Positions 1 through 55,458 of a stretch of DNA of 64,000 nt are shown here, piece after piece (position 1 is the stretch's first letter; every line of letters starts with the position of its first letter). Both the position numbers and the translations under genes were made by a program. The notes under the pieces are model-generated. The model was not told where the DNA came from. It did not search any database and worked only from the letters and a program-made list of their open reading frames with translations. The stretch lies in IMG/VR virus record IMGVR_UViG_3300031950_000001, positions 32,001-96,000 of that record. One strand, written 5' to 3'. Source of the DNA: a virus.

Positions 1-304
1 CTCAAGACTGAGAAAGTTGAAGCGTTTGAACCGTGAGTTATCCCGCCGACAAGAGAGTAGAGGAAGAAGTTGGCGACGCTACATCGTCGGATATTTGAAT
101 ACCGCTAGAAGCATTGAGCGGGAAGCATTACGTTTAATCGACAGATGCCGGAGTGGGTTCACGGACTCTCTAAACGGGCGTGGACGGGAAGGCTCTGGCT
201 ATCGGGAAACCGATAGTGAAACCGGCCCGAATAAAGCGCCAAAATTGGCCGAAGAAAGGCGGCCTTCCAGACCTGCCGTTGTTTAGGCAGGTTTGGTAAA
301 CCAG
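1..304 (+). mobile_element. Non-autonomous IS607 derivative (deleted tnpB remnant plus right end/omegaRNA), cut by the window start
   Basis: Matches pieces of the tnpB at 52778-54043 and ends in the same right end GGCAGGTTTGGTAAACCAG. It has the internal deletion junction CGGATA|TTTGAA. Confidence 0.9.
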
Positions 305-311
305 GTGTAAC

Positions 312-572
312 ATGCTGATCGCAGACTTTCGTACCGGTAAAATGACCAAACTGGCCATTGATTGGAAGGGTCTTTTCTCTGTTCTAATGTCGGGCGCGGT
401 AGGTGGAATTGGCGGACTCGGCGCTGGCGGTCTTATTGACCTACTCCGTGGAGACGGAACGCAGGACTATACCAAAACGCTCGGACTAATCGGTCTGATT
501 AGCGGTCTTGGTTATGGCGGCGCCAGAAAGCTGCTTGAGTATTTATTTAGTGATCATAAGGAGGAAAAATAA
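312..572 (+). CDS. Leader-family A protein (short; leader plus glycine-zipper hairpin)
   Basis: Starts MLIADFRTGKMTKLA, followed by two GxxxG-rich hydrophobic helices. Confidence 0.85.
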   Translation: MLIADFRTGKMTKLAIDWKGLFSVLMSGAVGGIGGLGAGGLIDLLRGDGTQDYTKTLGLIGLISGLGYGGARKLLEYLFSDHKEEK

Positions 573-575
573 GGG

Positions 576-830
576 GTGTTGATATTCGACTTTCGTACCG
601 GCAAAATGACTAAGAGGGCGTTCGACTTTGTCGATTTCGTCGATATTGTCGTGCCTGCGTTGAAAGGAGGCATATATGGGCTTATTGGACTAGTGCTTGG
701 CGATATTATCGATCAGCACATTGGTACCAGAAATCGATGGGCCACGATTCTTGGTCTTACGGGCTTGATCGCAGGTTTGGGCATTGGAGGGTACAGCCGC
801 TACTTAGCTCGGCGACACTTAGAGCAATGA
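576..830 (+). CDS. Leader-family A protein (short)
   Basis: Starts MLIFDFRTGKMTKRA, followed by GxxxG helices and the RWATILGLTGL motif. Confidence 0.85.
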   Translation: MLIFDFRTGKMTKRAFDFVDFVDIVVPALKGGIYGLIGLVLGDIIDQHIGTRNRWATILGLTGLIAGLGIGGYSRYLARRHLEQ

Positions 831-910
831 CGTTCAGACTGGACGGTAGTGCTTAGCTGTGAAGAGCGTAGGTTACTAGATGGCTAAGCTCTTTCCGAGA
901 TTCGAAAAAA

Positions 911-2242
911 ATGTTAATACTCGACTTTCGTACTGGCAAAATGACTAAAATAGCGCTAGACTTTAGCGACGCAGCTTCCGCACTGATATCGGCCGGATTA
1001 CTCGGTCTCGGCGGGGCCGGCCTTGGCTATCTCATTGACATGCGAGCCGGGACCGGAAAGCGATGGACTAAGATTCTTGGCTTGTTAGGCCTGCTGGGCG
1101 GGCTTGGGCTCGGTGCGTACGGCCGATATTTGTATAAAACGGACCAAACATCTCCCAATCAGGACGGTATGGCGGCTAGTCCTCTAGCGGTATCTGGCAG
1201 CACGTCCGATACAGCGCCCGAAGAACAGGCTCGCCGCTTGCCAGCCGACGGTTCGCCACTATCAATCGCACCTACCTCTGACAAGGTACAATCTGACGCC
1301 CCATCGGCTAAAACGCGGCCGACACGCCCGTCTAGCGGCTCATCCGACGCGCCACGAACTTCTTCAGGATCGTCGCGTAGTCCGTCCAACCAGCAACAGC
1401 CCTCTGTTTCTATAAGCTCGTCTGCCGGTTCAGCTGGCACGAAACTGCCTCCTAGCCCGCCAGCTGTACAGCATCCTCAAGGGCTGCATAGCGAGTCATC
1501 CAATAGAGCACAATCTCCGTCAGCGTCGTCTGGTCAGGCATCCGGCACGCCACAAACTTCTTCAAAATCAGCGCCCGGTTCATCTGGTACGGCACAATCT
1601 TCGTTAGGGTCATCCGGTCGCCCATCTGCTGCGCCGCCAACTTCTCCAGGATCATCGAGTGGTCCGTCCGACCAGAAACAGACTTCCGGTTCTACAGGAT
1701 CGTCTGCCGGGTCATCTGGTACGAAACCGTCCTCTACAGGGATCAGGCTTTCCGATGACCTCGCACAGAGGTTAGTAGAAAGAGTAAAGACGTTCCTTAA
1801 AGATACGCGGGGATCGCCTGACGATACGGATAGATATAAGGATCTTGATCAAGCACCTAACGAGATGTGCGTTCGACTTGTGCACACGGGAGTCCAAGGC
1901 GGTCAGGGCGTCTATCAGCCGGATGCCCGAGCCTATCGGGCAGCCGCAGAATTTGCTCGCGGCGACGAACAAAAACAGAGAGCAATTCGTCTCGCGAAGC
2001 GTTTCAGTGCACGGATCCATCTGCTTTTATTGCTCCAGCCCAAGCTTGCGCCTGATATGGCACAAGACATAACTCAGCGTATTAACGATGCTCTAACGGT
2101 GTTGCTAACGTTAAAGCCCGACGCATCAAACGCAGACGAGATCGATAAGTATTTTGCAGACAGGCTGCGCGGTTTGTTTAGTAATGATATTATTAATAAG
2201 GCGCTAACCGATCCCTTTTCGATTTCGCCTGAACCACGTTAA
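911..2242 (+). CDS. Leader-family A protein with long Ser/Pro/Gly linker and helical C-domain
   Basis: Starts MLILDFRTGKMTKIA, then glycine zipper and an approximately 200-aa low-complexity linker. Confidence 0.85.
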   Translation: MLILDFRTGKMTKIALDFSDAASALISAGLLGLGGAGLGYLIDMRAGTGKRWTKILGLLGLLGGLGLGAYGRYLYKTDQTSPNQDGMAASPLAVSGSTSDTAPEEQARRLPADGSPLSIAPTSDKVQSDAPSAKTRPTRPSSGSSDAPRTSSGSSRSPSNQQQPSVSISSSAGSAGTKLPPSPPAVQHPQGLHSESSNRAQSPSASSGQASGTPQTSSKSAPGSSGTAQSSLGSSGRPSAAPPTSPGSSSGPSDQKQTSGSTGSSAGSSGTKPSSTGIRLSDDLAQRLVERVKTFLKDTRGSPDDTDRYKDLDQAPNEMCVRLVHTGVQGGQGVYQPDARAYRAAAEFARGDEQKQRAIRLAKRFSARIHLLLLLQPKLAPDMAQDITQRINDALTVLLTLKPDASNADEIDKYFADRLRGLFSNDIINKALTDPFSISPEPR

Positions 2243-2267
2243 ACGAAGTCGAAAGCTGTTTTCAAAT

Positions 2268-2457
2268 TTTATCTTCGTCAGTCCCTGATAGCACTGTACG
2301 GTCCAGAACGAAACTTACCGAACGAAGAAGCGGCTGAAAGGGAATTTCAACCAGTGATAGAGTTGTTTAAGCAGACTAACATCGGAGAGATTCAGAGGGC
2401 GCTAGAAAATCCATTTTCCCTTTTAACTGAATCACCCTAGAAAAGGGGGTAATTATC
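2268..2457 (+). repeat. Intergenic direct repeat R1, copy 1 (coding remnant plus RBS region)
   Basis: Near-identical to 3323-3510 and partly to 4603-4696. Confidence 0.85.
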
Positions 2458-3285
2458 ATGCGAATCCTTGACTTTCGCGCTGGCAAAATGACGAAACGGG
2501 GGTTAGACCTTGGTGATGTTGGTGATGTTCTTTCCGTGGTAGGACCGGGAGCATTGTTTGGTATCGGTGGTGCAGGGCTTGGTAGTATCATTGATATGCT
2601 AGCCGGCACTAAACGTCGATGGACCACGATTCTTGGCCTGACAGGATTGGCTGGAGGCGTTGGGCTTGGAAGTACAGGTCTATTTAAGTCCTGGTTCGCA
2701 GCAGAACGAGGGCCTGAGTTCCCCAAGAAACTAAGTGACATCCCAGCTTATGCTAAGATCTTCCGCTATATCGTATTTATGCGAGCAGATCCGAGTGCAT
2801 TCAAAGGCTCTGATCATCCTATATTTCGACGCCTCCCTGAGATGGATGGAGAGCAGCTGTATTGCCATCTTACGCAGCTGGGGATTGCTCCGAACACGCT
2901 TCCGGGGTATAGAGCGAATCCGTATGTCCATAACGTGGCGGCAAACCTAGTTTCTCCTACCGACCCGCGACAGTTTGCAATTCTACATGCGGCGCATTTC
3001 AACCTGGAAGTTGTGCCGTTACAACTGTGCTGGAACGAGCTTGATGCAAACCAGCGCAACCGACTATTTTCGTCTCTCGGTGCGTATAGGGAGAAATTGG
3101 CTTTAAACGCCAACGACCCTACAATCAGCAAGGAAGCCGATAACGAGTTTAATAAACTAGTAAAGCAACTTATAGAGTACGGGAAAAAAGAGCATGCAGA
3201 TGCACTACGAATATTGCACCAGCAGCATCAAATGGACGTCCAAGAATTTGCTCAACAAATTCAGCAAGTTAAGCAACGACCGTAA
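2458..3285 (+). CDS. Leader-family A protein
   Basis: Starts MRILDFRAGKMTKRG, then glycine zipper and a variable C-domain. Confidence 0.85.
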   Translation: MRILDFRAGKMTKRGLDLGDVGDVLSVVGPGALFGIGGAGLGSIIDMLAGTKRRWTTILGLTGLAGGVGLGSTGLFKSWFAAERGPEFPKKLSDIPAYAKIFRYIVFMRADPSAFKGSDHPIFRRLPEMDGEQLYCHLTQLGIAPNTLPGYRANPYVHNVAANLVSPTDPRQFAILHAAHFNLEVVPLQLCWNELDANQRNRLFSSLGAYREKLALNANDPTISKEADNEFNKLVKQLIEYGKKEHADALRILHQQHQMDVQEFAQQIQQVKQRP

Positions 3286-3322
3286 TGACATTAAAGAACC
3301 CTGATTCATTATCACGATTTCT

Positions 3323-3510
3323 TTTATCTTCGTCGGTTCCTGATAGCATTGTACGATCCAGAGCGAAATTCACTGAACGAAACAGCGGCCGAGAAGGAAT
3401 TTCAACCAGTGATAGAGTTGTTTAAGCAGGCTAACATAAGAGAGATTCAGAAGGCGCTAGAAAATCCGCTTTCCCTTTTAACTGAATCACCCTAGAAAAG
3501 GGTAATTATC
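3323..3510 (+). repeat. Intergenic direct repeat R1, copy 2
   Basis: Near-identical to 2268-2457. Confidence 0.85.
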
Positions 3511-4293
3511 ATGCGAATCCTTGACTTTCGTACCGGCAAAATGACGAAACTGGCGTTAGACTTTGGTTATATTCCTGCTATGGCTATACCGGGAGTATTG
3601 TATGGTATCGGTGGTGCAGGGCTAGGTAGTCTCATTGATAGGCTAGCCGGCACTAAACGTCGATGGACCACGATTCTTGGTCTGCTAGGATTGGCCGGAG
3701 GTGCTGGGGCTGGAGGGTTGCTCCGATATCTGGATGAGCGCTCCAATACTCCTGAAGCGCAGATGCGTCGGTTCCTAACGAATGCAACGGCGCCGCCGTC
3801 TGATCAGTTTGTGCAACAGATGAGCGAGACCTTCCCATATATAGTTGAGACTTTCCGAAAGGCCGCTACCGAAAAGAAACCGAGCGATCTGATTCGTGGT
3901 CTTATCTGGCCATTATACGAGGAAGGCGGAATTTGGCTTTATAACCCGAGTGCCAGCGAGTTCCAACTTATCCTCTATTTCGCTTCTAAAACGCGAAACC
4001 ATGAGATGATACTACCTGCAATTGATCTTGCAACGGATATAGCTGCGCAAGGTCGGTTGCTTTCGCGGTATCAGGAATGGATTCCGGAGAATTTACGGCC
4101 AGAGATAGAGAACCACTTTAGGAACTATGTGAATGCGACTATCGACTATGTCGAAGGTAAGACGCCGGATCCGAACGCGCCTAAATTATATCTTGACAAG
4201 TTGGTGAAACTACTCAAGGATACAAATAAAAAAGAGCTTATAGAAATTGCGGATCTGATCAGACAACCACGTAAGGTTCTACAACAACAGTAA
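3511..4293 (+). CDS. Leader-family A protein
   Basis: Starts MRILDFRTGKMTKLA. The C-domain is paralogous to 5155-5922 (GRLLSRYQ..IPE.LRPEIE.HF.NY). Confidence 0.85.
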   Translation: MRILDFRTGKMTKLALDFGYIPAMAIPGVLYGIGGAGLGSLIDRLAGTKRRWTTILGLLGLAGGAGAGGLLRYLDERSNTPEAQMRRFLTNATAPPSDQFVQQMSETFPYIVETFRKAATEKKPSDLIRGLIWPLYEEGGIWLYNPSASEFQLILYFASKTRNHEMILPAIDLATDIAAQGRLLSRYQEWIPENLRPEIENHFRNYVNATIDYVEGKTPDPNAPKLYLDKLVKLLKDTNKKELIEIADLIRQPRKVLQQQ

Positions 4294-4297
4294 ACAA

Positions 4298-4503
4298 GAA
4301 CGGGAATACTGATAACGATCAAAATTTTGATTCCGGAATCAAATTTCGATGATGGTTCCGGAATACGCCAATGGTGCGGGCTGATATAGCCCGTTTTTCG
4401 TGGTCTTGGCCGTGAGAGTATTAGGTCAACCTGATTAAGTTATTCATCTCGGCGCCAAATGCGCACAAATTCATGTTAATACTCGATTTTCGTACCGGCC
4501 GAT
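4298..4503 (+). repeat. Intergenic direct repeat R2, copy 1
   Basis: Near-identical to about 5928-6135. Includes the 18-bp palindrome and the first 10 leader codons. Confidence 0.85.
4326..4343. repeat. Dispersed palindrome TTTGATTCCGGAATCAAA
   Basis: Exact 18-bp palindrome, intergenic. Confidence 0.95.
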
Positions 4504-4607
4504 ATAACAGAATTCAGCCCGAAGGCTACGATCCAGATCCCGTAGACTACCAAGCTGCTAGCCAAGCTGCTATAATAAAATCTGTACCGTCCAAACCGAC
4601 GAAGTGA
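4473..4607 (+). pseudogene. Deleted or chimeric leader-family A remnant
   Basis: MLILDFRTGR is fused directly to GYDPDPVDYQAA (compare GYDPDVLDFQVA in 5155-5922). 44 aa. Confidence 0.7.
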
Positions 4608-4696
4608 TAGAGTTGTTTAAGCAGGCTAACGTCGGAGAGATTCAAAGGGCTATAGAAATCCGTTTTCCCTTTTAACTGAATCACCCTAGAAAGGAG

Positions 4697-5144
4697 GTTA
4701 AAGCTGTTTTCAAATAACTAACTATACCGCTACAAACATACCAATAACACTTGACAAGAGACAAAGATGCGATATACTAATTGGTAAGGATTACCTGCTG
4801 GTCGACAGTGAAATAATCGAGGTTGACCGTCGTTCGGTATAGACACGGGCGTCAAGGCGTTAGCCGTTCTCTCAGATGGAAAGCGGTACGAGAACCAAGT
4901 ACTGCTACGCTCAAGACTGAGAAGTTGTCGACGCTACATCGACGGATATTTGAACGCCGCTCGGAACATTGAGCGGGAAGCGTTACGTTTGATCAACAGA
5001 GGCCGGAGTGGGTTCACGGACTCTCTAAACGGACGTGGACAGGACGTAAGACCCTTCGGGGCAGTCCTGGATGAAACGTCAAAATTGGCTGAAGAAAGGC
5101 AGCCTTCCATTCCTGCCGTGGTTTAGGCAGGTTTGGTAAACCAG
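4697..5144 (+). mobile_element. Complete non-autonomous IS607 derivative (448 bp), inserted at GGAG in the RBS of 5155
   Basis: Left end GTTAAAGCTGTTTTCAAAT and right end ...GGTAAACCAG match the full element. tnpA and most of tnpB are deleted. Confidence 0.92.
4751..4778 (+). promoter_or_regulatory. sigma70-like promoter in the left end of the IS607 derivative
   Basis: TTGACA-16 bp-TATACT. Confidence 0.6.
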
Positions 5145-5154
5145 GGTAACTATC

Positions 5155-5922
5155 ATGTTAATCCTTGACTTTCGCACCGGCAAAATGACGAAACTGGCGT
5201 TAGACTTTGGTGATGTTGCGTCCGTGGCGATACCGGGGGCGTTGTTGGGTCTCGGTGGTGTGGGGCTCGGTAGTCTAATTGATATGCTAGCCGGCACTAA
5301 ACGTCGATGGACCACGATTCTTGGTCTGACAGGACTGGCCGGAGGTGCGGGGCTTGGAGGATTGGGTCGATATCTGTATAAGCGCGATCCTACATATCAG
5401 ACGTTTGTGTTCCTAGATAAGGCATTCACGCCGGCGACTGAGTCGGATGTGCAGAAGAAGTTCGGTAACAACCCAGACGCGATTGCGGCGCACCAAACCC
5501 GAATCAATAACATGACGCCGACCGAACTGATTAATAGTCTTATCGAACCAATGTACAAGGACTTTTGGGGGTATGACCCGGATGTTCTCGATTTCCAAGT
5601 TGCCCGCTATCTCGTTTCTAAACAGGCCGATAACGCGAAATTAACCGCACTTAATATCGCCGTGGATATAGCGGTACGAGGTCGGTTGCTTTCGCGGTAT
5701 CAGAAACGGATTCCGGAGGATTTACGGCCAGAAATAGAGAAACACTTTATGAACTATGCGCGCGAAATGACCAATCAGTTCGCAAGTGCGAATCCAAATT
5801 GGGAAGTGCCTAAATCGCATCTTCAGACGTTGGTAGGGTTACTCGTGGCGACGAATCAAGAAGAGGTCGAAAAACTTGCGAAGCTAGTCGCAAATCCATA
5901 TAGCGTTCGGGATCAATCATAA
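5155..5922 (+). CDS. Leader-family A protein
   Basis: Starts MLILDFRTGKMTKLA, then glycine zipper. Confidence 0.85.
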   Translation: MLILDFRTGKMTKLALDFGDVASVAIPGALLGLGGVGLGSLIDMLAGTKRRWTTILGLTGLAGGAGLGGLGRYLYKRDPTYQTFVFLDKAFTPATESDVQKKFGNNPDAIAAHQTRINNMTPTELINSLIEPMYKDFWGYDPDVLDFQVARYLVSKQADNAKLTALNIAVDIAVRGRLLSRYQKRIPEDLRPEIEKHFMNYAREMTNQFASANPNWEVPKSHLQTLVGLLVATNQEEVEKLAKLVANPYSVRDQS

Positions 5923-5958
5923 AAAAACGAACGGGAATATTGATCGGTATCAAAAAAT

Positions 5959-5976
5959 TTTGATTCCGGAATCAAA
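5959..5976. repeat. Dispersed palindrome TTTGATTCCGGAATCAAA
   Basis: Exact copy, within repeat R2 copy 2. Confidence 0.95.
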
Positions 5977-6105
5977 TTTCGATGATGGTTCCGGAATACG
6001 CCAATGGTGCAGACCGATATAGCCCGTTTTTCGTGGTCTTGGCCGTGAGAGTATTAGGTCAACCTGATTAAGTTATTCATCTCGGCGCCAAATGCGCACA
6101 AATTC

Positions 6106-6918
6106 ATGTTAATACTCGATTTTCGTACCGGCCGAATGACCAAGTTTGCTTTGGAATGGCGCGGGCCGCTTGTTGATTGGCAAGGACTGGCTCGTGACTG
6201 GGGGTTGATCGGGCTACTGACCCTTGGCGGACTCGGCGTCGGCAGTCTTGTTGATTGGCTTCGCGATCGAAAGCTCTTTAGTGACGTCTCAAAACGAATT
6301 TTGTTGCTAAGCTTAGCGGTGGGATCGGTCGCTACGCTCGGCCGTTTTATGAATCAAAATATTTGGCTATATTTGCGGAAACGGAAACCGCTGGAAGGCC
6401 AAGGAAAAGAAATCGCGGACAAACATATCGAATTTGCCGCAAAATTACTAGAATTGCATAAAAGCGCGGCGAACGGATCAGCACAGATCAAGGACCCAGG
6501 ATTGCCAGTTGATATGACATTGAGTGAGATCGTCCGCGCAGGCAAGACGGGTGATCATCGATTCCTCGACGCGATTCAGAAGGTTTTGCAAAGTACGCGT
6601 TATAACCTGGATCAGGATTATAAAAACGCCGTCGATGATCTACTAAACTCCGTCGCGTTCTGGCATCTAATGCAAGCCATGCTTTCGAAAGTGCCGCCAA
6701 ACCACCCGATACGACAGACAATCAACCAGAAAATGGATCGCTGTATGCTTGATCCGCGCGTCGCGCGACAAGCGGAAGTTGAATCGATGAAGGCCGATCT
6801 TAGCGCCTTACAAATTCCCAATGCGCACGCTACAGTAGAGACGTTATTCTCGAATCCAGATGCGTTTATACAATCATGGCCGCAAATGTCGGCTAAACTC
6901 TTTGAACAGACAAAATAG
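6106..6918 (+). CDS. Leader-family A protein (divergent)
   Basis: Starts MLILDFRTGRMTKFA, then two hydrophobic helices and a unique C-domain. Confidence 0.85.
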   Translation: MLILDFRTGRMTKFALEWRGPLVDWQGLARDWGLIGLLTLGGLGVGSLVDWLRDRKLFSDVSKRILLLSLAVGSVATLGRFMNQNIWLYLRKRKPLEGQGKEIADKHIEFAAKLLELHKSAANGSAQIKDPGLPVDMTLSEIVRAGKTGDHRFLDAIQKVLQSTRYNLDQDYKNAVDDLLNSVAFWHLMQAMLSKVPPNHPIRQTINQKMDRCMLDPRVARQAEVESMKADLSALQIPNAHATVETLFSNPDAFIQSWPQMSAKLFEQTK

Positions 6919-7000: not shown

Positions 7001-7285
7001 ATGCGAATTGTACTCGACAATAAAGAATTTGAATGTAAGAAGTTCGTCGTATTCGACAAGTTTGGCAACGCGGTCGCTGCCGGATATGATCATGCTGATG
7101 TCCTCGTGTTTGATACATGTGCCGGCCCCGATTTTCCGAAAATTCTCTCCATTGTTGGCTATCCAGATCGTCTTCCAACACAGATCATTGATACAAAACC
7201 ATTAATACCGGAGCTTTCTCCTATCAAGCCTGACACAGGTGCCGACCATGCAGGAAACGACCATTGGACAACTCTTAATTTCTAG
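7001..7285 (+). CDS. Hypothetical protein
   Basis: 94-aa ATG ORF filling the gap before the RNAP gene and overlapping its start. Confidence 0.55.
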   Translation: MRIVLDNKEFECKKFVVFDKFGNAVAAGYDHADVLVFDTCAGPDFPKILSIVGYPDRLPTQIIDTKPLIPELSPIKPDTGADHAGNDHWTTLNF

Positions 7286-9089
7286 TACCCTGCCGTCGGA
7301 TATTAAGCTTCCTGACGAAATCACAAAGAAGACGATCAATAGTTTCTATGGGGAGCTTGCTCGCAAATACCCCGATCGCTACGGCGAAATTACGAAAAAG
7401 TTAAATCAAATTGCCGTTCAGGCCCTTTATTCCAATGACGGCGCCTCGTTTAGCCTAGATGATCTTCGACCTCTTCCTTCTTCTTACTCTTATAGACCGG
7501 TTATTCTAAAAGAGATCGAGCAGATCGCGTCCAGCAAATTGCCGGATCGCGAAAAGCGCAAAAAAATCGCCGACGCCATTCTTCGTCATTCGCAAAATCT
7601 CCTTCAACTCACGCAAGACGAGGCCAAAGCCGCGAATAATCGATTCTACGAATATGTCTATTCCGGCGCTCGCGGTAATCCCGCCCAGCTTAAGCGGCTT
7701 ATTACGGGGGATACGGCCTACTTTGACCCCTCTGGAGAGGTAGTACCCTTCCCCGTTTTATCTGCGTATTCGGCAGGAGTACCTCCCGCAGAGTTTTGGG
7801 CTGCCTGCTATGGCGCCAGGAAGGGGCTAGCGGATACAAAGCTGGATGTAGCCAGAAGCGGTTATCTTGCCAAGCTTCTCAACCGTGCTACCCATCGGCT
7901 TGTTGTTATCGGCCACGACGCCAAAACAAAAACTCCTTATCCCATTGGTCTTCCTGTAGAGACTCAAGACCCTGATAATATCGGCGCATTTCTCGCACTT
8001 CCGGCAGGAAGATGGCCTGCCGGTACGGAGATAACACCGGCCGTTTATGAAGATCTAAAACGAGACGGTATCAAAAAGATCGTCGTTCGGAGTCCCATTG
8101 CCAGCCCTGCTGTTGATGGAATCTATGCCGTCGATGCCGGAATCCGCGAACATGGTCGTCTCCCCGAAATCGGTAGCATTCCTGGCATGGCGGCGGCCCA
8201 AGCAATCGGCGAACGACTAGCACAGACGTCCTTGAGCTCGAAGCATCTGGGAGGCGTTGTGAAGTTTAGCGGCTTTAGAGTGCTAGAACAGATGCTTAAT
8301 GTTCCGAAATTCTACGTTGGCGGCGCCATTCATAGCCAGGTCGACGGAAAAGTTCGATCTATAGACAAAAATGAAATTGGTCAATGGCGAATTGTAATCG
8401 GAGAACAAGAACATCTAGCACCTCCGTCCCATAAACCCATCGTCAAAGAGGGCGACGTTGTCGAAGCCGGAGACATACTAACGGAGGGTTTGCCCAACCC
8501 GGCAGAGGTAGTAAAGCACAAAGGGGTTGGCGAAGGACGTAGGGCATTTGTTAAAATGTTTTATGAGGCGATGCGTGACGCTGGTCAGCCGGTCCATCGT
8601 CGTAATGTCGAGCTTTTAGCCCGAGGTCTTATCGATCACGTTATTATAACCCAGCCGTTTGGGGGGTTCTATCTCGATGAAATCGTACCCTATGGCGAGG
8701 TTGCTAAGCGATGGACCCCCCGAAAGGGTAGTGTTCGAGTTCCTGTCGACAGCGCGTTAGGCTACTATCTTGAAGTACCCGTTCTTCACTACACGATAGG
8801 GACAAAGATAAAGCCTTCGGTTATCAAAGAGCTTAAAGAGGCGGGAATCAAAGATATTATCGTTCATAGCGATCCGCCTCCGTTTGAGTCATATATGGTT
8901 CGTGCAGCATCTTCGCTTGAGTTTGATCCCAACTGGATGACACGGTTGTTCGGCTCGAACCAAATTCGGGCCTTATTAAGCGCCGTCCGTCAAGGCGCTA
9001 CAGGTGAAATCTACGGTACTAGCTTTGTTCCTGCAAAAGCAATCGGGATTCCGTTGGGGCAGTGGATACGTGGAGTTGTAAATCGCTAA
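7239..9089 (+). CDS. Phage multisubunit RNA polymerase, beta'-like C-terminal half (split rpoC homolog)
   Basis: Has SGARGN, a bridge-helix-like GARKGLADT..SGYL, a trigger-loop-like AAQAIGERLAQ..SKH, sandwich-barrel VKEGDVVEAGDILTEG, and HRRNVELLAR. No NADFDGD catalytic motif. Confidence 0.9.
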   Translation: MPTMQETTIGQLLISSTLPSDIKLPDEITKKTINSFYGELARKYPDRYGEITKKLNQIAVQALYSNDGASFSLDDLRPLPSSYSYRPVILKEIEQIASSKLPDREKRKKIADAILRHSQNLLQLTQDEAKAANNRFYEYVYSGARGNPAQLKRLITGDTAYFDPSGEVVPFPVLSAYSAGVPPAEFWAACYGARKGLADTKLDVARSGYLAKLLNRATHRLVVIGHDAKTKTPYPIGLPVETQDPDNIGAFLALPAGRWPAGTEITPAVYEDLKRDGIKKIVVRSPIASPAVDGIYAVDAGIREHGRLPEIGSIPGMAAAQAIGERLAQTSLSSKHLGGVVKFSGFRVLEQMLNVPKFYVGGAIHSQVDGKVRSIDKNEIGQWRIVIGEQEHLAPPSHKPIVKEGDVVEAGDILTEGLPNPAEVVKHKGVGEGRRAFVKMFYEAMRDAGQPVHRRNVELLARGLIDHVIITQPFGGFYLDEIVPYGEVAKRWTPRKGSVRVPVDSALGYYLEVPVLHYTIGTKIKPSVIKELKEAGIKDIIVHSDPPPFESYMVRAASSLEFDPNWMTRLFGSNQIRALLSAVRQGATGEIYGTSFVPAKAIGIPLGQWIRGVVNR

Positions 9090-9130: not shown

Positions 9131-9985
9131 GTGAATATCAGAAAACTCGACCTTGGGCGATCGAATCGCGCGCTAAACGCCGTGGAAGCCAGGATTCGTT
9201 GCCTTATTAAGACCGCCCAAACATCGGAAGAAAAAGATACGCCTTGGATGAAGCTACTGAACTATCTGCAAAGTAAGCCAATACTGGTACCATTTTTGCG
9301 AATGAAGCTTAACAGTCTTGACATGGAACAAAATGAACGTCAAAAGCTTCTGGATTCTATTGCCAAATATGGACTGTTTAAAGTTGTAGACGAGGAGGTT
9401 CTCAACAGTATGGTTGACGCTCTATACAAGAATAATCAGTTAAAAGATAAATTCGTGAAGGCCGTGCGGGCCAGCGATAGTCTGCCCGAAGGTGCGAAAA
9501 CCGCGTTGTTAGATGCGCTTGAATGGCGCCTGAACCAAATGCGTCAGCAACAAAATCGAACGCAGCCCGCGCAACAAGATATGTTGCAACCTGGTCCGTC
9601 ACAGCCACAGCCAGCGCAAGATGTCGAGAAGCGTCTTCAGTTGATGATGCGTGGTTTCGATACGGATTTCTATTACGATCCCGTCGGATCGTGTTACTGG
9701 CTACGCTATCGTAATGGGCTGTGGATCGGGTTTGTGCCTGCGGTTCCAGATAGCTCAAGACGTCTTACGGTCGTAGAGGATTCGAAACATGTAACTACCT
9801 ATCGCGACAACGCTACAGGCCATCATTGGGTACAACTTCCGAACGACCAATGGTACATAGTTAGTATCCCAATGCGGCAACCTAGCTATACTCAGTTTGA
9901 TCCGCAAAAAGCTTTGGGGCCACTGCCAGGAGCTAAGTCGACTCAACCAAACATCCAACAGCCTGTCCTTACGCAGCCAAAATAA
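9131..9985 (+). CDS. Leader-family B protein
   Basis: Starts MNIRKLDLGRSNRALNAVEARIRCLIKTAQ. Has Gln/Pro-rich linkers. Confidence 0.8.
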   Translation: MNIRKLDLGRSNRALNAVEARIRCLIKTAQTSEEKDTPWMKLLNYLQSKPILVPFLRMKLNSLDMEQNERQKLLDSIAKYGLFKVVDEEVLNSMVDALYKNNQLKDKFVKAVRASDSLPEGAKTALLDALEWRLNQMRQQQNRTQPAQQDMLQPGPSQPQPAQDVEKRLQLMMRGFDTDFYYDPVGSCYWLRYRNGLWIGFVPAVPDSSRRLTVVEDSKHVTTYRDNATGHHWVQLPNDQWYIVSIPMRQPSYTQFDPQKALGPLPGAKSTQPNIQQPVLTQPK

Positions 9986-10052
9986 ACACAAAACCGTCGA
10001 GAAACGTAACGCACGTAACGTCGGGTCGCATTTGATTAAGGAAATTGAAAAA

Positions 10053-10070
10053 TTTGATTCCGGAATCAAA
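10053..10070. repeat. Dispersed palindrome TTTGATTCCGGAATCAAA
   Basis: Exact copy. Confidence 0.95.
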
Positions 10071-10088
10071 ATTTTGAGGTCGCTGTCG

Positions 10089-11021
10089 ATGAACGTCCGA
10101 AAGCACTATTTAGGTCGATCGAATCGTAACTTAAACGCACTCGAAGCCAGGATTCGTCTTCTTATTAAGAGGGCCCAACGGTTTGATCTAGACGAAATGC
10201 GGAACACTTTAGTGACACGTCTGGCACAGCAACGTTGGAGAATAACTGACTTCCTCCGTAATCTTGTGGCAAACGACGCAATCAGCAAGGAGGATGCTCA
10301 AAGACTTTTGAACTATCTTACGAATACATATAGATTTTATGGTACTGACCTTGTAAATCGCAAGGTTATTGATGTCATAATGGATTTCATGCAAAGACAA
10401 TCGCCCGAGAGCCAAAGGGCGTTTATCGCCGGTCTGGAGAAGTTGATGTCCAATTTAATTGGCATGCCGCCAAATGAGCAAGAGAACGTGTTAGATATGG
10501 TTCGTCAAGGCATATCGCCCAGCCAGCCGGATCAACAAAGCCTGCTGGATCGACAGGATCAGCCGCAGATCGGGGAGCCTCTCACCATGATTCCGCTTGG
10601 TCAGAATCGATGGCTCTTCCTAAGCAAAAACAGAGCCGATGCGGCTTGGATGGGAGGTCCGAACAAATACTTGACCCCAGTCGATCACCAATATGTGGTT
10701 GAGCTGTTGAAACAACAGCCAAACCTAAGGAAACAAGCCAAGAATGTTATTTTTGAGTATCGTTCGCCATATCACCCTGTATACTTCGTTCGCGAGCAAG
10801 CTACTGGAAAGTCGTTTTCGATACCTTCGGAGGAACAAATTCGCCAATACCTTCCTGGCTACACGCCTCAACAGCCGACTCAGCAAAATATGCAGCCGTT
10901 TGCCCCTAGACCAACTCAGCAAAATACGTCGCCGTTTGCCCCTGAGACGATGCAACCACCTATTCCTGGACGGACTCAACAACGGCCAAATGCTGGAAAA
11001 CGTGGCGCTCCGTCTTATTAG
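10089..11021 (+). CDS. Leader-family B protein
   Basis: Start reassigned to ATG 10089 (GAGG RBS) by homology: MNVRKHYLGRSNRNLNALEARIRLLIKRAQ. Confidence 0.8.
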   Translation: MNVRKHYLGRSNRNLNALEARIRLLIKRAQRFDLDEMRNTLVTRLAQQRWRITDFLRNLVANDAISKEDAQRLLNYLTNTYRFYGTDLVNRKVIDVIMDFMQRQSPESQRAFIAGLEKLMSNLIGMPPNEQENVLDMVRQGISPSQPDQQSLLDRQDQPQIGEPLTMIPLGQNRWLFLSKNRADAAWMGGPNKYLTPVDHQYVVELLKQQPNLRKQAKNVIFEYRSPYHPVYFVREQATGKSFSIPSEEQIRQYLPGYTPQQPTQQNMQPFAPRPTQQNTSPFAPETMQPPIPGRTQQRPNAGKRGAPSY

Positions 11022-11052
11022 TCACAAAACGATAGTTGAAAAACGAGATTTT

Positions 11053-11070
11053 TTTGATTCCGTAATCAAA
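11053..11070. repeat. Dispersed palindrome, one mismatch (TTTGATTCCGTAATCAAA)
   Basis: 17 of 18 bases match. Same position upstream of a family B gene as the other copies. Confidence 0.9.
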
Positions 11071-11087
11071 TCTTGAGGGCTCGACCA

Positions 11088-13376
11088 ATGAACGTCAGAA
11101 ACCTCTATTTCGATCGATTAAATCGTAAATTAAACGCAATCGAGGACAGTATTCGTCTTGTAAAGAGGGCGCAAGGAGCTGACCAGAAGGACCCATGGAA
11201 AATTTTGGATAGCTATCTAAAGGCGCATGAGATGAAGGTAAGGGACCTGCTCGATAAGGTCCAGCAGAAATACGGGCAAACCGGCGCGACAATGCTTCAG
11301 CGATTTCTTGAAAATAACGGGATCAAGCCCGACACTTCCTTATCTTCGGATCTTACGCAGAAAATTCTTAACCTTATACGATCGAAACAAGAGTACAAAT
11401 TCGCTCTTGACGCCGTGCCTGCTATAGTGGATGCGTTGTTGAAGGACATGCCGAAAAATGAACGAAAGATCGTGACAAATGCGGTTAAAGCGCATATATC
11501 CGCTCCGCAGACCAGACAGCCAGCTCAACAGCCAGCTCAACAGAACGCCGCACAGCCAAGTCCGCAGGCTCAACAAACGCAAAAGGCTAGGGAGCGCCTT
11601 GTTCCAGTTCAGCTTTCGCCGGACGGAAAGGGCGGCGTCTATCACGACCCAGAAACGGGCTATTATTGGGCACTTTTTCCAGATGAAAGAAAGGTCTGGG
11701 TCTCCCCAGACGAAATGGCGAAGACGATAAACGCTAGGGAAATGAGCAAAAATCGACCTTGGTTCCAGCAGATTATGTCAAATCCGCACTATACGGATAG
11801 GAGCAAAGTCCTCGAAGATCAAGGAATGACAGAGGACGCAGAGCGAATGTTCAAGTTTCATCTCCAACAATTTGCGCCCAGGAGCTTTGATCCGAATCGG
11901 ACGGCGCTACTACGCGCCCGAGCGGCGGAGTTTGCAGAGGTTCGCGACGGTAAAAAGGTTATAACAGGCAATAGCGTAAAAGCCGCAATAGTGGCAGATT
12001 ACCTAATACAGCGTGGTAGGGGTTTGGCACATGAAGACGAGGTGTTTAGAAATCCTGCTACAGCGGGCTGGCCGACCAATATGCCGCCGCGTACGAAAGA
12101 ACAACAGGCGAAGCGCATAGCCGAATCGGTTACGAGCTCGGTAGAGCGCTTTGAAGATATTCGAAATACGCTTCTTGGTCTGTCACCTGAACTTCGCCTA
12201 CGGGTTTGGAGTTCGCTTCCGAAGGAGACTCGACAGCAACTGCTAAAAGCGTATAGAGACTTGGATTATAAAACATTTGGCCGCGGTTACATCGAGGAAA
12301 GATGGAAGAGAATAAAATCGGATATAGTGAAATGGGGGATTATACCAGTCCCGCCCGAGCAGAAACCGCCAGAAGGGCCCCCGCCCGAGCAGAAGCAGCC
12401 TCCAGCGCCCCCGCCGAATCCGTTCGACGAGCCCCAGCCAGAGCAGAAGCAGCCTCCAGTACCTCCGCCAGAGCAGAAGCAGCCTCCAGTGCCTCCGCCG
12501 ACGCCCGAGCAGAAACCGCCAGAAGGGCCCCCGCCCGAGCGGAAGCAGCCTCCAGCGCCTCCGCCACCTGCTGACCAATCGTATGCCCTAACGTATCCCT
12601 TTGCGCCTCGCGAGCCAGGCACAATTGGATCAGTTGGTGAACAGATTACTGTACCGCCGTCGCTCTTATCGGGGTGGCCAGAGTCGAACAAGCCTGCCTT
12701 TCCGAATTATCCGTATAGAGTAGTAGAATCGAATCCCACTGAAGGGCTTGGTCTGCCTAACGCCTTAACGCAGCCGCAAAAACCCTTATCACAGATATTT
12801 GAGTCTACACTCGGTCCTTTGCCGCCCCCGTCGAACAAGCCTACCGTTCCGAATTACCCGTATCGAGTCGTAGAATCGAATCCCACTGAAGGGCTTGGTC
12901 TGCCTAACGCCTTAACGCAGCCGCAAAAACCCTTATCACAGATATTTGAGTCTACACTCGGTCCTTTGCCGTCTGAGTCGAAGAAGACGCCTGCACCAAC
13001 GTATCCCTTTGCATCTCAAACACCGGGCACAATTGGATCAGTTGGGGAACAGATTACTGTGCCGCCGTCGCTCTTATCGGGGCGGCCTGCGTCGAATGCC
13101 AGCCTATCTGGTCTGCCTGCTGCTGGGCAATCGTCCGCACCAACGTATCCCTTTGCATCTCAAACACCGGGCACAATTGGATCAGTTGGGGAACAGATTA
13201 CTGTGCCGCCGTCGCTCGTATCGGGGTGGCCAGAGTCGAATGCCAGCCCGTTTGGTTCGCCTGCTGCTGGTCGGCCATCCATACCGACGTATCCATATTC
13301 GCCTCTAGAATCGAGTCCACCAGGAACGATTGGTCGACCGAGCGTTATACCACCTGCGCTACCGCTAATTTATTGA
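11088..13376 (+). CDS. Leader-family B protein with long Pro-rich repeat tail
   Basis: Starts MNVRNLYFDRLNRKLNAIEDSIRLVKRAQ. Has PEQKQPP repeats and approximately 47-49-aa tandem repeats. Confidence 0.85.
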   Translation: MNVRNLYFDRLNRKLNAIEDSIRLVKRAQGADQKDPWKILDSYLKAHEMKVRDLLDKVQQKYGQTGATMLQRFLENNGIKPDTSLSSDLTQKILNLIRSKQEYKFALDAVPAIVDALLKDMPKNERKIVTNAVKAHISAPQTRQPAQQPAQQNAAQPSPQAQQTQKARERLVPVQLSPDGKGGVYHDPETGYYWALFPDERKVWVSPDEMAKTINAREMSKNRPWFQQIMSNPHYTDRSKVLEDQGMTEDAERMFKFHLQQFAPRSFDPNRTALLRARAAEFAEVRDGKKVITGNSVKAAIVADYLIQRGRGLAHEDEVFRNPATAGWPTNMPPRTKEQQAKRIAESVTSSVERFEDIRNTLLGLSPELRLRVWSSLPKETRQQLLKAYRDLDYKTFGRGYIEERWKRIKSDIVKWGIIPVPPEQKPPEGPPPEQKQPPAPPPNPFDEPQPEQKQPPVPPPEQKQPPVPPPTPEQKPPEGPPPERKQPPAPPPPADQSYALTYPFAPREPGTIGSVGEQITVPPSLLSGWPESNKPAFPNYPYRVVESNPTEGLGLPNALTQPQKPLSQIFESTLGPLPPPSNKPTVPNYPYRVVESNPTEGLGLPNALTQPQKPLSQIFESTLGPLPSESKKTPAPTYPFASQTPGTIGSVGEQITVPPSLLSGRPASNASLSGLPAAGQSSAPTYPFASQTPGTIGSVGEQITVPPSLVSGWPESNASPFGSPAAGRPSIPTYPYSPLESSPPGTIGRPSVIPPALPLIY
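12349..13250 (+). repeat. Intragenic tandem repeats
   Basis: CCCGAGCAGAAGCAGCC units, a 147-bp duplication near 12683/12830, a 141-bp duplication near 12995/13136, and three copies of PGTIGSVGEQITVPPSL. Confidence 0.85.
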
Positions 13377-52352: not shown

Positions 52353-52777
52353 TTTTGGCTTGTCCGTTTTGAAAAAATCTGTTAAATTGATTTAACAAAC
52401 CTCCTACCTGCCCGCCCCGCGGAGCACCGCAGAACACAATCCTGCGGGGCGGGCAGGGTTTAATCGTCCGTCCTATAACGAAAGGAGAAGGAGAAATGAA
52501 GTATCGTGCAATTGTGTCGGGTCTAATGGTTCTGTCGGTTTTGGCTGTTTCGTCGCTGCGAGCGGCTGATGTTCCGCCCGATATCGAGAAGAAGCATGTC
52601 CAAATGCTCTATCCAGTCGTCCGCGTGACGGTCAAGAACGCTGGCGGCTCTGGGACAATTCTCTATAGCGAAGATCGTGGAGATGGCTGTCAGACCTACG
52701 TTTTGACGAACTATCACGTTATCGAGGGAGCCATTAATATCGTTACCGAGTGGTCTTCGCTGGTTTACCAAACCTGC

Positions 52778-54043
52778 CTAAACCACGGCAGGTTTGGTAG
52801 GCTGCCTTTCTTCAGCCAATTTTGACGCTTCATCCAGAACTGCCCCGAAGGGTCTTACGTCCTGTCCACGTCCGTTTAGAGAGTCCGTGAACCCACTCCG
52901 GCCTCTGTTGATCAAACGTAACGCTTCCCGCTCAATGTTCCGAGCGGCGTTCAAATCCCTATCAGCGGTATACCCGCACTCACAAACAAACGTTCGGTCA
53001 CTCAGTGCCAAGTCTGATTTGACTACACCACACATTGGGCATAGCCGACTAGAGGGGAAGAAGCGGTCAACTTTTACCAATACGCCGCCGTACCACTCGG
53101 ATTTGTATCGTAACTGTCGTACAATCTCGCCAAGCCCAGCATCGGAGATTAGCAGGGCCATGCGGTGGTTACGCAGCATTCCGGCGACATTCAAATCTTC
53201 CACGCCGATAATCCGATAGGTGCGGGCGATCTCGGTCGTCATCTTGTGCAGATAATCCAACCGCTTGTTGGCTATCCGACGATGTAGCGTCGCCAACTTC
53301 TTCTTGGTGCGGTTCCAGCGACCGCTTCCCTCTTGTCGGCGGGATAGTTCGCGGCTCAGACGCTTTAACTTTCTCAGTCTTGAGCGTAGCAGCACTTGGT
53401 TCTCGTACCGCTTGCCATCTGAGAGAACAGCCAAAGTCCTGACGCCCACGTCTATCCCGACTGCCCCTTGTGGGTGCTTGTGTTCTGGTGGTTCGATTTC
53501 TACATTGACAGCAGCATACCAATGCCCTGCGTTCTCCGAAATAGTAACTGACTTGATTTCACCGTTAAACCTCAACACCTCGGCCATATTGATTGGTTTA
53601 TCTAACTTTTCCAACTTGAGCCAATGGCCGTCAATACGAACCCGTGTCCCGTCCATTCTGAAGGATAATTTGGATCGTTTCTTGGACTTGAACCTGGGAT
53701 AGCCCTTCTTAGTATCGCCATTCTTGCACCGGCGAAAGAACCTCGTGAATGCGTCATCAAGATTCCGAAAGCCAGTTTCTACAGCGCATTTAGAAACGTC
53801 CAGGGCCCAGGGGAACTGCTTGCGCTTGATGGCGTTGAATTGCCTTTTCAAGGTATAAGCTGATGGTTTCCTGCCAGCGGCATATTCTTTCTGCCACTCG
53901 GCCAAACCCCAATTGAAGGCAAATCTTGCCGTTCCGCAAGCCTTGCGCAGGTACTCGGTCTGTTGAGGCGTGGGATTAAGTCTGATTTTATGTGCTCGCT
54001 GCATCGGAGCTTTCCTTCTGCCTGCGCCCGCCTCGTGCTCCAT
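52778..54043 (-). CDS. tnpB: TnpB RNA-guided nuclease
   Basis: N-terminal HTH_OrfB-like region, RuvC D (GIDVG), E (VEDL) and D (DRDLNAA), and Zn finger CPMC...CECG. True start probably MQRAHK. Confidence 0.95.
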   Translation of the reverse strand: MEHEAGAGRRKAPMQRAHKIRLNPTPQQTEYLRKACGTARFAFNWGLAEWQKEYAAGRKPSAYTLKRQFNAIKRKQFPWALDVSKCAVETGFRNLDDAFTRFFRRCKNGDTKKGYPRFKSKKRSKLSFRMDGTRVRIDGHWLKLEKLDKPINMAEVLRFNGEIKSVTISENAGHWYAAVNVEIEPPEHKHPQGAVGIDVGVRTLAVLSDGKRYENQVLLRSRLRKLKRLSRELSRRQEGSGRWNRTKKKLATLHRRIANKRLDYLHKMTTEIARTYRIIGVEDLNVAGMLRNHRMALLISDAGLGEIVRQLRYKSEWYGGVLVKVDRFFPSSRLCPMCGVVKSDLALSDRTFVCECGYTADRDLNAARNIEREALRLINRGRSGFTDSLNGRGQDVRPFGAVLDEASKLAEERQPTKPAVV

Positions 54044-54599
54044 ATAACCGAGACGAAAAACTTACAATGATCGTCAGAATATCCTCAATCAACTCTTCGT
54101 GCTCGTTCTTCTCTTCCGCTTCTTCCAGAACTTCTACTCTGCAACCTACGCCATTGAAGAATCGCTCAATGGTTCGGAAACCAAAGCGGGTCAATCTATC
54201 TCGATGTTCAACTACAACCTTTTTGATTTTACCTTTGCAAGCCGCGTCTATGATCTTGAAGAACTGGCGGCGATTGTCGTTTAGACCAGAAGCAATCTCG
54301 GAACAGTCTAACACAATGCGATAACCGCGCTCCCTACAGGCTTCTATCAGCCTTTCATGCTGGCGGGTAAGATTCTCTACTTGCTTTTGTGTAGATACAC
54401 GAGCATACAAGGCTACGTCCTTCTCGGTTACAGTAACACCATCCGATATAGACAGGAGCTTTTCAATCTCGGCACTATCATAGCGACGATGCCCGCCAGC
54501 AGTACGGTGTTCAGTCAGCTTTCCATCCCTGAGCCACCGATGCAAGGTGGTCTTGGAGAGCCGATACTTCTGCTCGACTTCCGATTGCCTCAACAACAT
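53988..54599 (-). CDS. tnpA: IS607 TnpA serine recombinase
   Basis: MerR-like HTH (TLHRW..DGKL...RT.GGHRRY), YARVST, SGLN..R and DRL.RFG. Confidence 0.95.
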   Translation of the reverse strand: MLLRQSEVEQKYRLSKTTLHRWLRDGKLTEHRTAGGHRRYDSAEIEKLLSISDGVTVTEKDVALYARVSTQKQVENLTRQHERLIEACRERGYRIVLDCSEIASGLNDNRRQFFKIIDAACKGKIKKVVVEHRDRLTRFGFRTIERFFNGVGCRVEVLEEAEEKNEHEELIEDILTIIVSFSSRLYGARGGRRQKESSDAAST

Positions 54600-54720
54600 C
54601 AGCCATTACCTCATTCAGCCAAGTCTCATAGTCCTGTTTGTCCGGTACGGATTCAAATGGCGGGTCAACCTCGATTCTTTCACCGTTGACCAGTACGTAA
54701 TCCTCACCAATTTCATTTAT

Positions 54721-54749
54721 AGTATAGCGCATCTTTGTCTCCTTGTCAA
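54721..54749 (-). promoter_or_regulatory. sigma70-like promoter in the IS607 left end
   Basis: TTGACA-17 bp-TATACT on the minus strand. Confidence 0.7.
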
Positions 54750-55458
54750 GTGTTATTGGTATGTTTGTAGCGGTATAGTCAGTTATTTGAAAACAGCTTT
54801 AACCTCCAGCAAGACGTGAAGCGGGAAGTCAACGACGAAGTCAAGGTTGAAATTTTCCGCTACACGCAAGGAAGTCGTCAAGACTTTAGTGACGCTTGTC
54901 AGGCGGAAATTGTAGCCAATTCGAAAGAAGAGGATTTGGCACTTTTACGCCTTAAGACCTCCCGCAAGATCGATCACGTCGCGAAAATGCTTCCCGAAAA
55001 CGTCAGGGTTTACATTTTCCAGCCGATCTATGCGGTAGGATGCTCGCTGCCGCATCCGCCGATTGCAACAAAGGGCGAGATTAACTATCTCGATGACGTT
55101 ATTGATAAGCGTACTTATTGGATGGGAACGGCCAACATCGTCTTCGGTAATAGCGGTGGCGCCGTCTTTACCGAACATAACGGGGACTATTATTTCATTG
55201 GCGTCCCTAGCCGGGTTGCCGGCAGCTGGACGCAGATCTTCCCTCATATGGGATGGTTCATCCCGATCACGCGAGTTAGAAACTGGGCTAAGGCCGAGCA
55301 TCTTGAGTTTCTGATTGATCCGAAGGTCAAGCCTTCGGATTGCTTTGCCAAGCGCGAGCAATTGCGCAAAGAAGCCGAACTGCGGATTTCGGCACAAAAG
55401 AAAGGCGAGCCAACTCCAGCGCCGAAGCCTTAAAACAATCTGATTAGCATTTCGACTA

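Follow-up and report, generated by a model that had tools for sequence, protein, structure and literature searches.

A conserved N-terminal peptide on fast-diverging hairpin proteins encoded between the RNA polymerase genes of a phage

The complete 144,055-bp virus record IMGVR_UViG_3300031950_000001 (IMG/VR), which carries terminal repeats, encodes an array of proteins that share a near-invariant N-terminal leader followed by a glycine-rich helical hairpin. We analysed this family in a stretch of 64,000 nt comprising bases 32001-96000 of the record (hereafter the window), together with its relatives elsewhere in the genome and in sequence collections. Our principal finding is that the leader is conserved as a peptide and behaves as a functional tag on proteins that have otherwise diverged widely. 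The family lies between the two genes of a split multisubunit-type RNA polymerase (RNAP), and we tentatively favour a reading in which its members are virion-associated, membrane-active internal or ejection proteins that accompany a virion RNAP.

The open reading frame (ORF) listing of the window places seven intact ORFs and one remnant, all on the plus strand, at positions 312-6918 (Table 1). Their shared leader has the consensus M[LR]I[ALF]DFR[TA]G[KR]MTK-x-[AG]. An initial annotation, made from the letters of the window alone, had described the same set of genes, and its coordinates and leader endings agree with the listing. A degenerate DNA pattern of the leader core gives seven matches where 0.01 would be expected, and when all six frames of the 144-kb genome are scanned, the strict leader motif turns up only at the eight array sites; the signature is statistically solid. 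The family is nevertheless not complete within these limits, as three further, diverged members reside upstream of the window, directly after the gene for the fused RNAP subunit beta-beta'N; one of these, a 212-aa protein, contains two hairpin units. The genome therefore carries 10 intact members and one remnant. The proteins are basic, with isoelectric points of 8.0-9.7, and of about 12 for the two small upstream members.

Selection on the leader peptide

Synonymous (pS) and non-synonymous (pN) change was estimated from a codon alignment of 15 distinct members taken from the window and from related contigs. Leader codons 2-13 have a pS of 0.58 and a pN of 0.06 (pN/pS 0.10), and hairpin codons 14-72 have the same pS of 0.58 with a pN of 0.35 (pN/pS 0.60). 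Because pN is far lower in the leader than in the hairpin at equal pS, conservation acts on the amino acids and not on the DNA. The leader is retained on paralogues that otherwise share just 12-50% identity, and ten paralogues in this one genome keep it although their C-terminal domains drop to approximately 12-20% identity. In a relative, P0024, the leader is present and the hairpin has been lost. These observations support the suggestion, already made in the initial annotation, that the N-terminal peptide acts as an address tag. Purifying selection on the leader is strong even though synonymous change in it has reached saturation, so that a protein partner is expected to read it; the most suitable reading of the tag is a handle that a single shared partner protein recognises. 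Initiation must take place at the first ATG or GTG and not at Met11.

The leader could instead be a conserved DNA or RNA element, namely a translation-initiation region, a target of the transposon-associated TnpB/omegaRNA system or a product of gene conversion. Two TnpB mini-elements do end close to leader starts, one of them 7 nt before the ATG of member 1 (an arrangement shared with the relative L001) and the other, a clean insertion in the 5' untranslated region, 10 nt before the ATG of member 6, and their guide-equivalent flanks cover the first codons. Several upstream segments have also been duplicated along with the genes; for example, the remnant and member 7 have the same upstream segment. 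However, the leader varies at synonymous sites as much as the hairpin does while its non-synonymous change is six times lower, its DNA variation falls mostly at third codon positions, and the sequences upstream of the leader genes belong to at least four unrelated classes. Neither recent gene conversion nor a translation-initiation element nor a transposon target accounts for leader conservation, and the possibility of a nucleic acid element, effectively refuted by the substitution pattern, is extremely small.

The initial annotation had also raised the alternative of a class III (prepilin-like) signal, to which a bacteriocin-type leader can be added; in either case a host peptidase would cut after K-x-A/G and release a pilin-like or pore-forming peptide. 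The leader is indeed short, and it does combine an invariant K13 and a near-invariant A/G15 with a hydrophobic residue that follows them, ends in KRA and KRG in two members, and is followed by Asp at position +5 in four, as the annotation had noted. In other respects the fit is poor. A class III signal would call for K/R at -2 and G/A at -1, followed by an unbroken hydrophobic stretch of about 20 residues with E/D at +5. Here five of the seven members have Lys at -3 instead of -2, and just two have Arg at -2. The start of the hydrophobic core is interrupted by acidic residues at +2 and +5, and pilins do not typically have a second helix after a basic turn. The double-glycine motif (GG, GA or GS) of bacteriocins and other ribosomally synthesized, post-translationally modified peptides is missing, as the leader ends in K-x-A or, in one member, K-R-G. 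No pilin, Flp or bacteriocin family in Pfam matches at E values up to 0.1, no A24 peptidase (PF01478) is matched in the phage, and the genome of Chloroflexus sp. MS-G (see below for the host) holds neither a family member nor a look-alike. We consider cleavage by a host prepilin or bacteriocin peptidase very unlikely.

Two related ideas were also rejected. The (K)LNLQFFA-type motif of Prp processing, known from L27 and from the capsid and scaffold proteins of phage 80alpha, is absent from the leader. Prp (PF04327) is not matched in Chloroflexus sp. MS-G, where the match to L27 begins at profile position 1 in a 92-aa frame and so leaves no extension. Mimicry of a host signal was dismissed because no look-alike occurs in that genome. 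The tag may itself be cut after K-x-A, a reading prompted by the conserved residues K13 and A15; with so short a motif, its recurrence as a maturation site in other head proteins is not open to judgement.

Hairpin and C-terminal domains

The region after the leader consists of two Gly-rich helices with a basic turn between them (..LID.LAGT[KR]RRW..), as originally described, and positions G39, D43, G47, L58, G60, L61 and G66 are invariant. GxxxG occurs three to five times per N-terminal domain and once in w6106, and several Gly positions do not vary. The periodic glycine zipper first ascribed to these helices has no statistical support, as GxxxG counts do not exceed those of composition-matched shuffles, 25-58% of which reach the observed zipper count. 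'Gly-rich helical hairpin with invariant glycines' is the safe description. AlphaFold2 (AF2) predicts two helices in the N-terminal region with a confidence (pLDDT) of only 30-55.

The hydrophobicity of the helices is marginal for transmembrane segments: in the best 19-residue windows Hessa dG values sum to about +2 to +7 kcal/mol, and the Kyte-Doolittle average is 1.1-1.85. Basic residues mark both the turn and the stretch that follows helix 2, and the leader has a net charge of +2 to +4, so that a normal positive-inside two-pass topology does not follow. A membrane-active hairpin, as first proposed, is plausible, and marginal hydrophobicity with basic flanks would suit conversion from a soluble to a membrane form better than classical Sec insertion.

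Comparable helices are known from phage lysis proteins. Pinholins and signal-anchor-release (SAR) proteins (phage 21 S68, P1 Lyz) are small proteins whose Gly/Ala-rich helices are weakly hydrophobic and can move into and out of the membrane, possibly with dual translation starts. Class II holins have about 65-95 aa, two transmembrane domains and a charged C-terminus, and the short members w312 and w576 (84-86 aa), in which two Gly-rich helices precede a charged C-terminus, resemble them in size and shape. They might be class II holins or pinholin-like proteins, with Met1 and Met11, both kept in the core group, providing a holin/antiholin pair and the long members acting as derived regulators. 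The family differs from pinholins and SAR proteins in its ten copies, most of them with large C-terminal domains of approximately 180 aa, and in an N-terminal decapeptide under amino acid selection that exceeds, across codons 2-10, what a dual start would need. In addition, the second Met is not universal, being missing in diverged members (MLIHDFQKQGQTVK, MLIYDFANDSFTK), and none of the neighbouring genes has an endolysin-like Pfam match. A lysis function of this type is improbable.

The C-terminal domains were described at the outset as swappable payloads that range from none to unrelated helical domains. They are indeed entirely absent from w312 and w576, but the remainder are mostly homologous. 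Comparison of the profiles of type A (w3511, w5155 and relatives) and type B (w2458) gives 91.7% (E 8e-7), and type A matches the C-terminal end of w911 at 92% in hhalign (E 6e-7). Profile comparison detects no relation to type A for the C-terminal domain of w6106. Four of the five long members (w911, w2458, w3511 and w5155) therefore carry, by profile comparison, domains of one fast-diverging helical superfamily without a known fold. The array represents one full-length ancestral protein that has diverged in a steep gradient from tag to hairpin to C-terminal domain, rather than a tag joined to unrelated cargo, and the idea of swappable payloads is mostly wrong. Structure prediction, which had been proposed for these domains, yields confident all-helical AF2 models (pLDDT >90) for w5155 (residues 80-255) and w2458. 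Neither model has a convincing match in PDB or BFVD (Foldseek, VIA), where only generic helical-bundle noise was returned; the best structure match has a Z of 7.4, to PhoU-like proteins, and Foldseek E values exceed 0.1.

Distribution and genomic setting

A hidden Markov model (HMM) of the leader and hairpin matched 19 proteins among 1.84 billion cluster representatives. Three of these (P0020, P0021 and P0026) were rejected as compositional false positives, since they are type IX secretion system/PKD and YDG surface proteins with Gly-rich repeats. Approximately 16 true representatives remain, all small metagenome proteins. Seven loci were recovered from 241 million metagenome records, and no locus beyond this genome was found in IMG/VR. 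A tblastn search of 50,697 phage records found no match, no member has a significant family in Pfam or PHROGs, a sequence-profile search of PDB gave no match for the family, and the Atlas offered nothing usable for the 86-aa member. On the evidence of these searches and of the Chloroflexus sp. MS-G genome, the leader does not belong mainly to non-phage loci; the family is a lineage-specific orphan with a phage-only distribution. The virus is a hot-spring phage, and its probable host is Chloroflexus, since Chloroflexus sp. MS-G carries a TnpB with 85% identity to that of the phage.

In every contig long enough to provide context, the family genes lie upstream of the RNAP beta'C gene, always between beta-beta'N and beta'C, and share their strand with the structural genes on either side. 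The genome contains one multisubunit-type RNAP gene set, whose fused beta-beta'N and separate beta'C genes are 13 kb apart (Table 1), and no sigma70_r2 match. The gap between them encodes, on one strand, only small proteins that are Pro-rich or bear hairpins. The gene content of the array varies between close relatives. A distant 135-kb relative (L026) has a single member, MLIYDFANDSFTKLA.., between the RNAP halves, accompanied by homologues of the Pro/Gly-rich protein, the GYxTLP-hairpin protein (see below) and the 94-aa protein (Table 1). This single copy beside conserved module proteins suggests a core module rather than random accessory genes, and the family began as a single-copy gene of the inter-RNAP module that was expanded in this phage to 10 intact copies.

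Table 1. Members of the leader-hairpin family and neighbouring features. Positions are those of the window unless a genome or L008 position is given.
Feature	Position	Strand	Product	Description
Upstream diverged members	L008:12076-13255		65, 81, 212 aa	start MLIYDFKSGKMVKFA.., MLIYNFQNNKMEKVA.., MLIHDFQKQGQTVKVE.. (MLIYDFKSGKMVKFAMPD.., MLIYNFQNNKMEKVAMPDW.., MLIHDFQKQGQTVKVEMPEW..)
Member 1 (w312)	312..572	+	86 aa	leader ends KLA; leader and Gly-rich hairpin only; orthologue kept in relatives (L001:4303)
Member 2 (w576)	576..830	+	84 aa	leader ends KRA; leader and hairpin only; GTG start 4 nt past the member 1 stop; orthologue P0014
Member 3 (w911)	911..2242	+	443 aa	leader ends KIA; hairpin, Ser/Pro/Gly/Thr-rich linker of ~200 aa, helical C-domain homologous to type A
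Member 4 (w2458)	2458..3285	+	275 aa	leader MRILDFRAGKMTKRG, ends KRG; hairpin, type B helical C-domain
Member 5 (w3511)	3511..4293	+	260 aa	leader ends KLA; hairpin, type A helical C-domain
Remnant	4473..4607	+		first 10 leader codons intact, then unrelated frame
Member 6 (w5155)	5155..5922	+	255 aa	leader ends KLA; hairpin, type A helical C-domain
Member 7 (w6106)	6106..6918	+	270 aa	leader ends GRMTKFA; diverged hairpin; C-domain without detectable kinship to the others
RNAP beta-beta'N, fused	genome 21574-25935		1453 aa	
Conserved 94-aa gene	7001..7285	+	94 aa	always precedes beta'C in relatives (L005, L006, L026)
RNAP beta'C	7239..9089	+	616 aa	Rpb1 domains 4-5
TnpB sites	1-304, 4690-5144, 52760-54807; genome 1612-2066, 88540-88736			
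Old TnpB/omegaRNA mini-element, 3' part	1..304	+		internally deleted; right end ..GGTTTGGTAAACCAG
Recent TnpB mini-element	4690..5144	+		455 bp, 99.8% identical to genome 1612-2066
Palindrome and terminator	4327..4394	+		palindrome TTGATTCCGGAATCAA, terminator-like hairpin and T-run after member 5; fold z -3.1

The head and tail genes lie downstream of beta'C and include, in this order, those for a candidate prohead protease (w21731-23137), an acidic scaffold-like protein (w23252-24460) and the major head protein, the predicted major capsid protein (w25578-26540). Three of the four nearest named Atlas clusters of the 468-aa protease candidate are prohead proteases (S77, S78 and S78_2; score 0.85), a weak lead as to its function that no Pfam match accompanies, and an order of protease, scaffold and capsid would leave room for proteolytic maturation.

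The same split RNAP layout is found in Vibrio phage D181 and in Salmonella phage Arash, which has, in order, a portal gene, fused beta-beta'N, a gap of approximately 5 kb, beta'C and the structural genes; its beta'C is 25.6% identical to that of the present phage over 92% of the length. In the Arash virion proteome, RNAP beta gives the most spectra and beta' is in the top five, and gp213, a Gly-rich 214-aa protein encoded in the gap, was found in virions by mass spectrometry (PMC10585845). Two further small proteins encoded between RNAP halves, Arash gp212 and D181 0269, have a Gly-rich helix and a basic tail. None of these proteins has detectable homology to the present family, and the evidence that these phages contribute to a virion location is positional and compositional only. 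A further circumstantial point is the position of the array inside a late, structural block of genes.

Several observations weigh against such a location. The tag is missing from the other predicted virion proteins of the phage, RNAP subunits included, which shows that it does not serve generally to target proteins to the capsid. Pfam gives no match to a prohead protease of the S77 or S78 type, and PF03420 is absent from the genome. The Arash list comprises 116 proteins (PMC10585845) and probably includes contaminants. Homology of the family to gp213 was rejected, as there is no detectable sequence similarity, and AF2 confidence is low across the entire N-terminal 75 residues of the family proteins. 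The inter-RNAP gap is an insertion hot spot, with TnpB mini-elements here and homing endonucleases in D181, and accessory, non-virion genes would fit it equally well. Finally, the recent mini-element carries a sigma70-like promoter (4751-4778, 11 of 12 matches) that reads into member 6, making early expression by the host RNAP possible for that gene.

An alternative that we judge nearly as likely, although by itself doubtful, is that the family comprises non-virion membrane proteins of the infected cell with roles, for example, in superinfection exclusion, envelope remodelling, or the timing or regulation of lysis. The hairpin would anchor them in the cytoplasmic membrane, the fast-evolving C-terminal domain would face changing partners, such as components of the host envelope or rival phages, and the tag would bind one shared factor of phage or host, such as an insertase or regulator. 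The two-helix hydrophobic architecture agrees with this, the Ser/Pro, Pro and Gln-rich spacers after the hairpin of w911 and of members in L001 are typical of extracytoplasmic tethers, and neighbouring genes also encode proteins that combine a hairpin with Pro-rich sequence. Rapid divergence of the C-terminal domains and copy-number differences among close relatives suggest an arms race, and the hot spot supplies mobile promoters. On the other side, the marginal helices with all three flanks basic give no consistent positive-inside topology, so conserved an N-terminal tail would be unusual in a simple anchor, the array sits within a late, structural block between virion-type RNAP genes, and the family is a single-copy core gene in L026.

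Of the TnpB elements in the genome (Table 1), one is intact (421 aa); the other four are mini-copies with internal deletions, in which an omegaRNA-like right end is retained. The left ends begin GGAGG, so that the element seems to land in Shine-Dalgarno-like sequences. A 26-bp palindrome, AAAATTTGATTCCGGAATCAAATTTT, has 33 copies in the genome (window 4327, 5960, 6947, 9095 and 12 more) and marks gene boundaries genome-wide, in the structural and replication modules alike; the 10.4 kb that separate the stop codon of RNAP beta-beta'N from window 4327 are free of it. The palindrome-terminator unit that follows member 5 recurs after member 6 (5960 onwards), and the palindrome alone follows member 7 (6947). 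Spacers at 2290-2440, 3349-3495 and 4605-4680 hold 2.5 copies of an apparent lost coding end (..EFQPVIELFKQANIREIQKALENPLSLLTESP and a stop). Spacers of approximately 215 nt before w2458 and w3511 were rejected as structured RNAs (fold z +0.6) and look like remnants of this C-terminal coding end. Rfam and tRNA scans of the window were empty.

Two other paralogous families adjoin the RNAP genes. Upstream of the window, at L008:14135-17725 (genome 28135-31725), three proteins of 195, 282 and 383 aa form a second hairpin family with the C-terminal motif GYxTLPxLLALxSAxxTDKPxxPxxLxLAGLGxAH. Two of them, of 282 and 383 aa, have the N-terminus MGLVFNPNKFSSTKRAA in common; TonB-like PPEEPPPGPKP repeats occur in one of the two and approximately 15 repeats of 17 aa (LQDPKQQQVVQDMILKG) in the other. 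Homologues of the family occur in L001 and L026. Downstream of beta'C, three consecutive genes at window 9131-13376, each preceded by the palindrome (9095, 10054 and 11054), share the N-terminal motif (M)N[IV]RK..(G/D)R[SL]NR.LNA[VI]E and constitute a third family with a conserved N-terminus.

Proposed function and comparison with known systems

In the virion reading, which we prefer tentatively and which, on circumstantial support, comes close to the capsid-targeting and delivery scheme of the initial annotation, each protein would have up to three working parts. The N-terminal peptide of 13-16 residues (M-L-I-x-D-F-x-x-G-K-M-x-K-x-A) would be a handle for one phage-encoded partner in sorting, assembly or processing. 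The Gly-rich helix/basic-turn/helix hairpin would serve oligomerisation and conditional membrane insertion, and the third part, in most members, would be the fast-diverging all-helical domain, sometimes behind a Pro/Ser/Gln-rich spacer. The proteins would be made late, alongside the virion RNAP, and carried into the particle by the tag. At infection they would insert in the host membrane, and there either aid delivery of DNA and RNAP or act through the C-terminal domain on variable host targets. In a bolder and rather unlikely version, the MLIxDF..K.A peptide would be a new kind of portable tag, for virion targeting or for ejection, in a lineage of virion-RNAP phages. It would load the membrane-inserting hairpin proteins into the particle; once ejected, these would form a conduit or anchor for the passage of DNA and an RNAP of approximately 2,000 residues into the Chloroflexus cell, and the paralogues would offer diversified C-terminal domains to host targets. 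Were the virion reading correct, it would help to explain how a virion RNAP is delivered across the envelope, and the tag would provide a handle for loading foreign proteins into such particles. Even if it is wrong, a 13-residue peptide kept nearly unchanged on ten fast-diverging paralogues points to a specific recognition system.

Among known hairpins, those of ATP synthase c-subunits and AtpI have a similar helix/basic-loop/helix arrangement, in which small residues of the GxGxG type form a packing face and a carboxylate is conserved (D43 in this family). Pfam matches to PF09527 (E 0.0013-0.096) fall below the curated cut-off, and the likeness is probably compositional. The closest positional counterparts are Arash gp212 and gp213, which share the location between beta-beta'N and beta'C of a homologous RNAP as well as Gly-rich helices. 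They differ from the present family in lacking detectable homology to it, the MLIxDF tag and paralogue expansion.

The nearest functional analogues would be the internal proteins of phage T4 (IPI, IPII, IPIII and Alt), where a short N-terminal peptide is likewise found on an array of fast-diverging phage proteins and where the gene content of the array likewise differs between related phages. Guided by the capsid-targeting sequence (CTS), the T4 internal proteins enter the scaffolding core, and their injection accompanies that of the DNA (PMC3012670). The leader described here has no sequence similarity to the CTS and ends in K-x-A/G instead of carrying an [LI]-x-E motif, and an S77 protease of the gp21 type has no Pfam match in this genome; with neither the cleavage motif nor the protease detected, membership in the T4 CTS system fails. 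Further differences are the hydrophobic Gly-rich hairpin, the homologous C-terminal domain that most members share in place of unrelated cargo, and the absence of the tag from other putative virion proteins. If the tag nonetheless proves to be a packaging or ejection signal, it would represent a second, independent case of the principle behind the T4 CTS, this time in a phage that is unrelated to T4 and infects a thermophilic phototroph.

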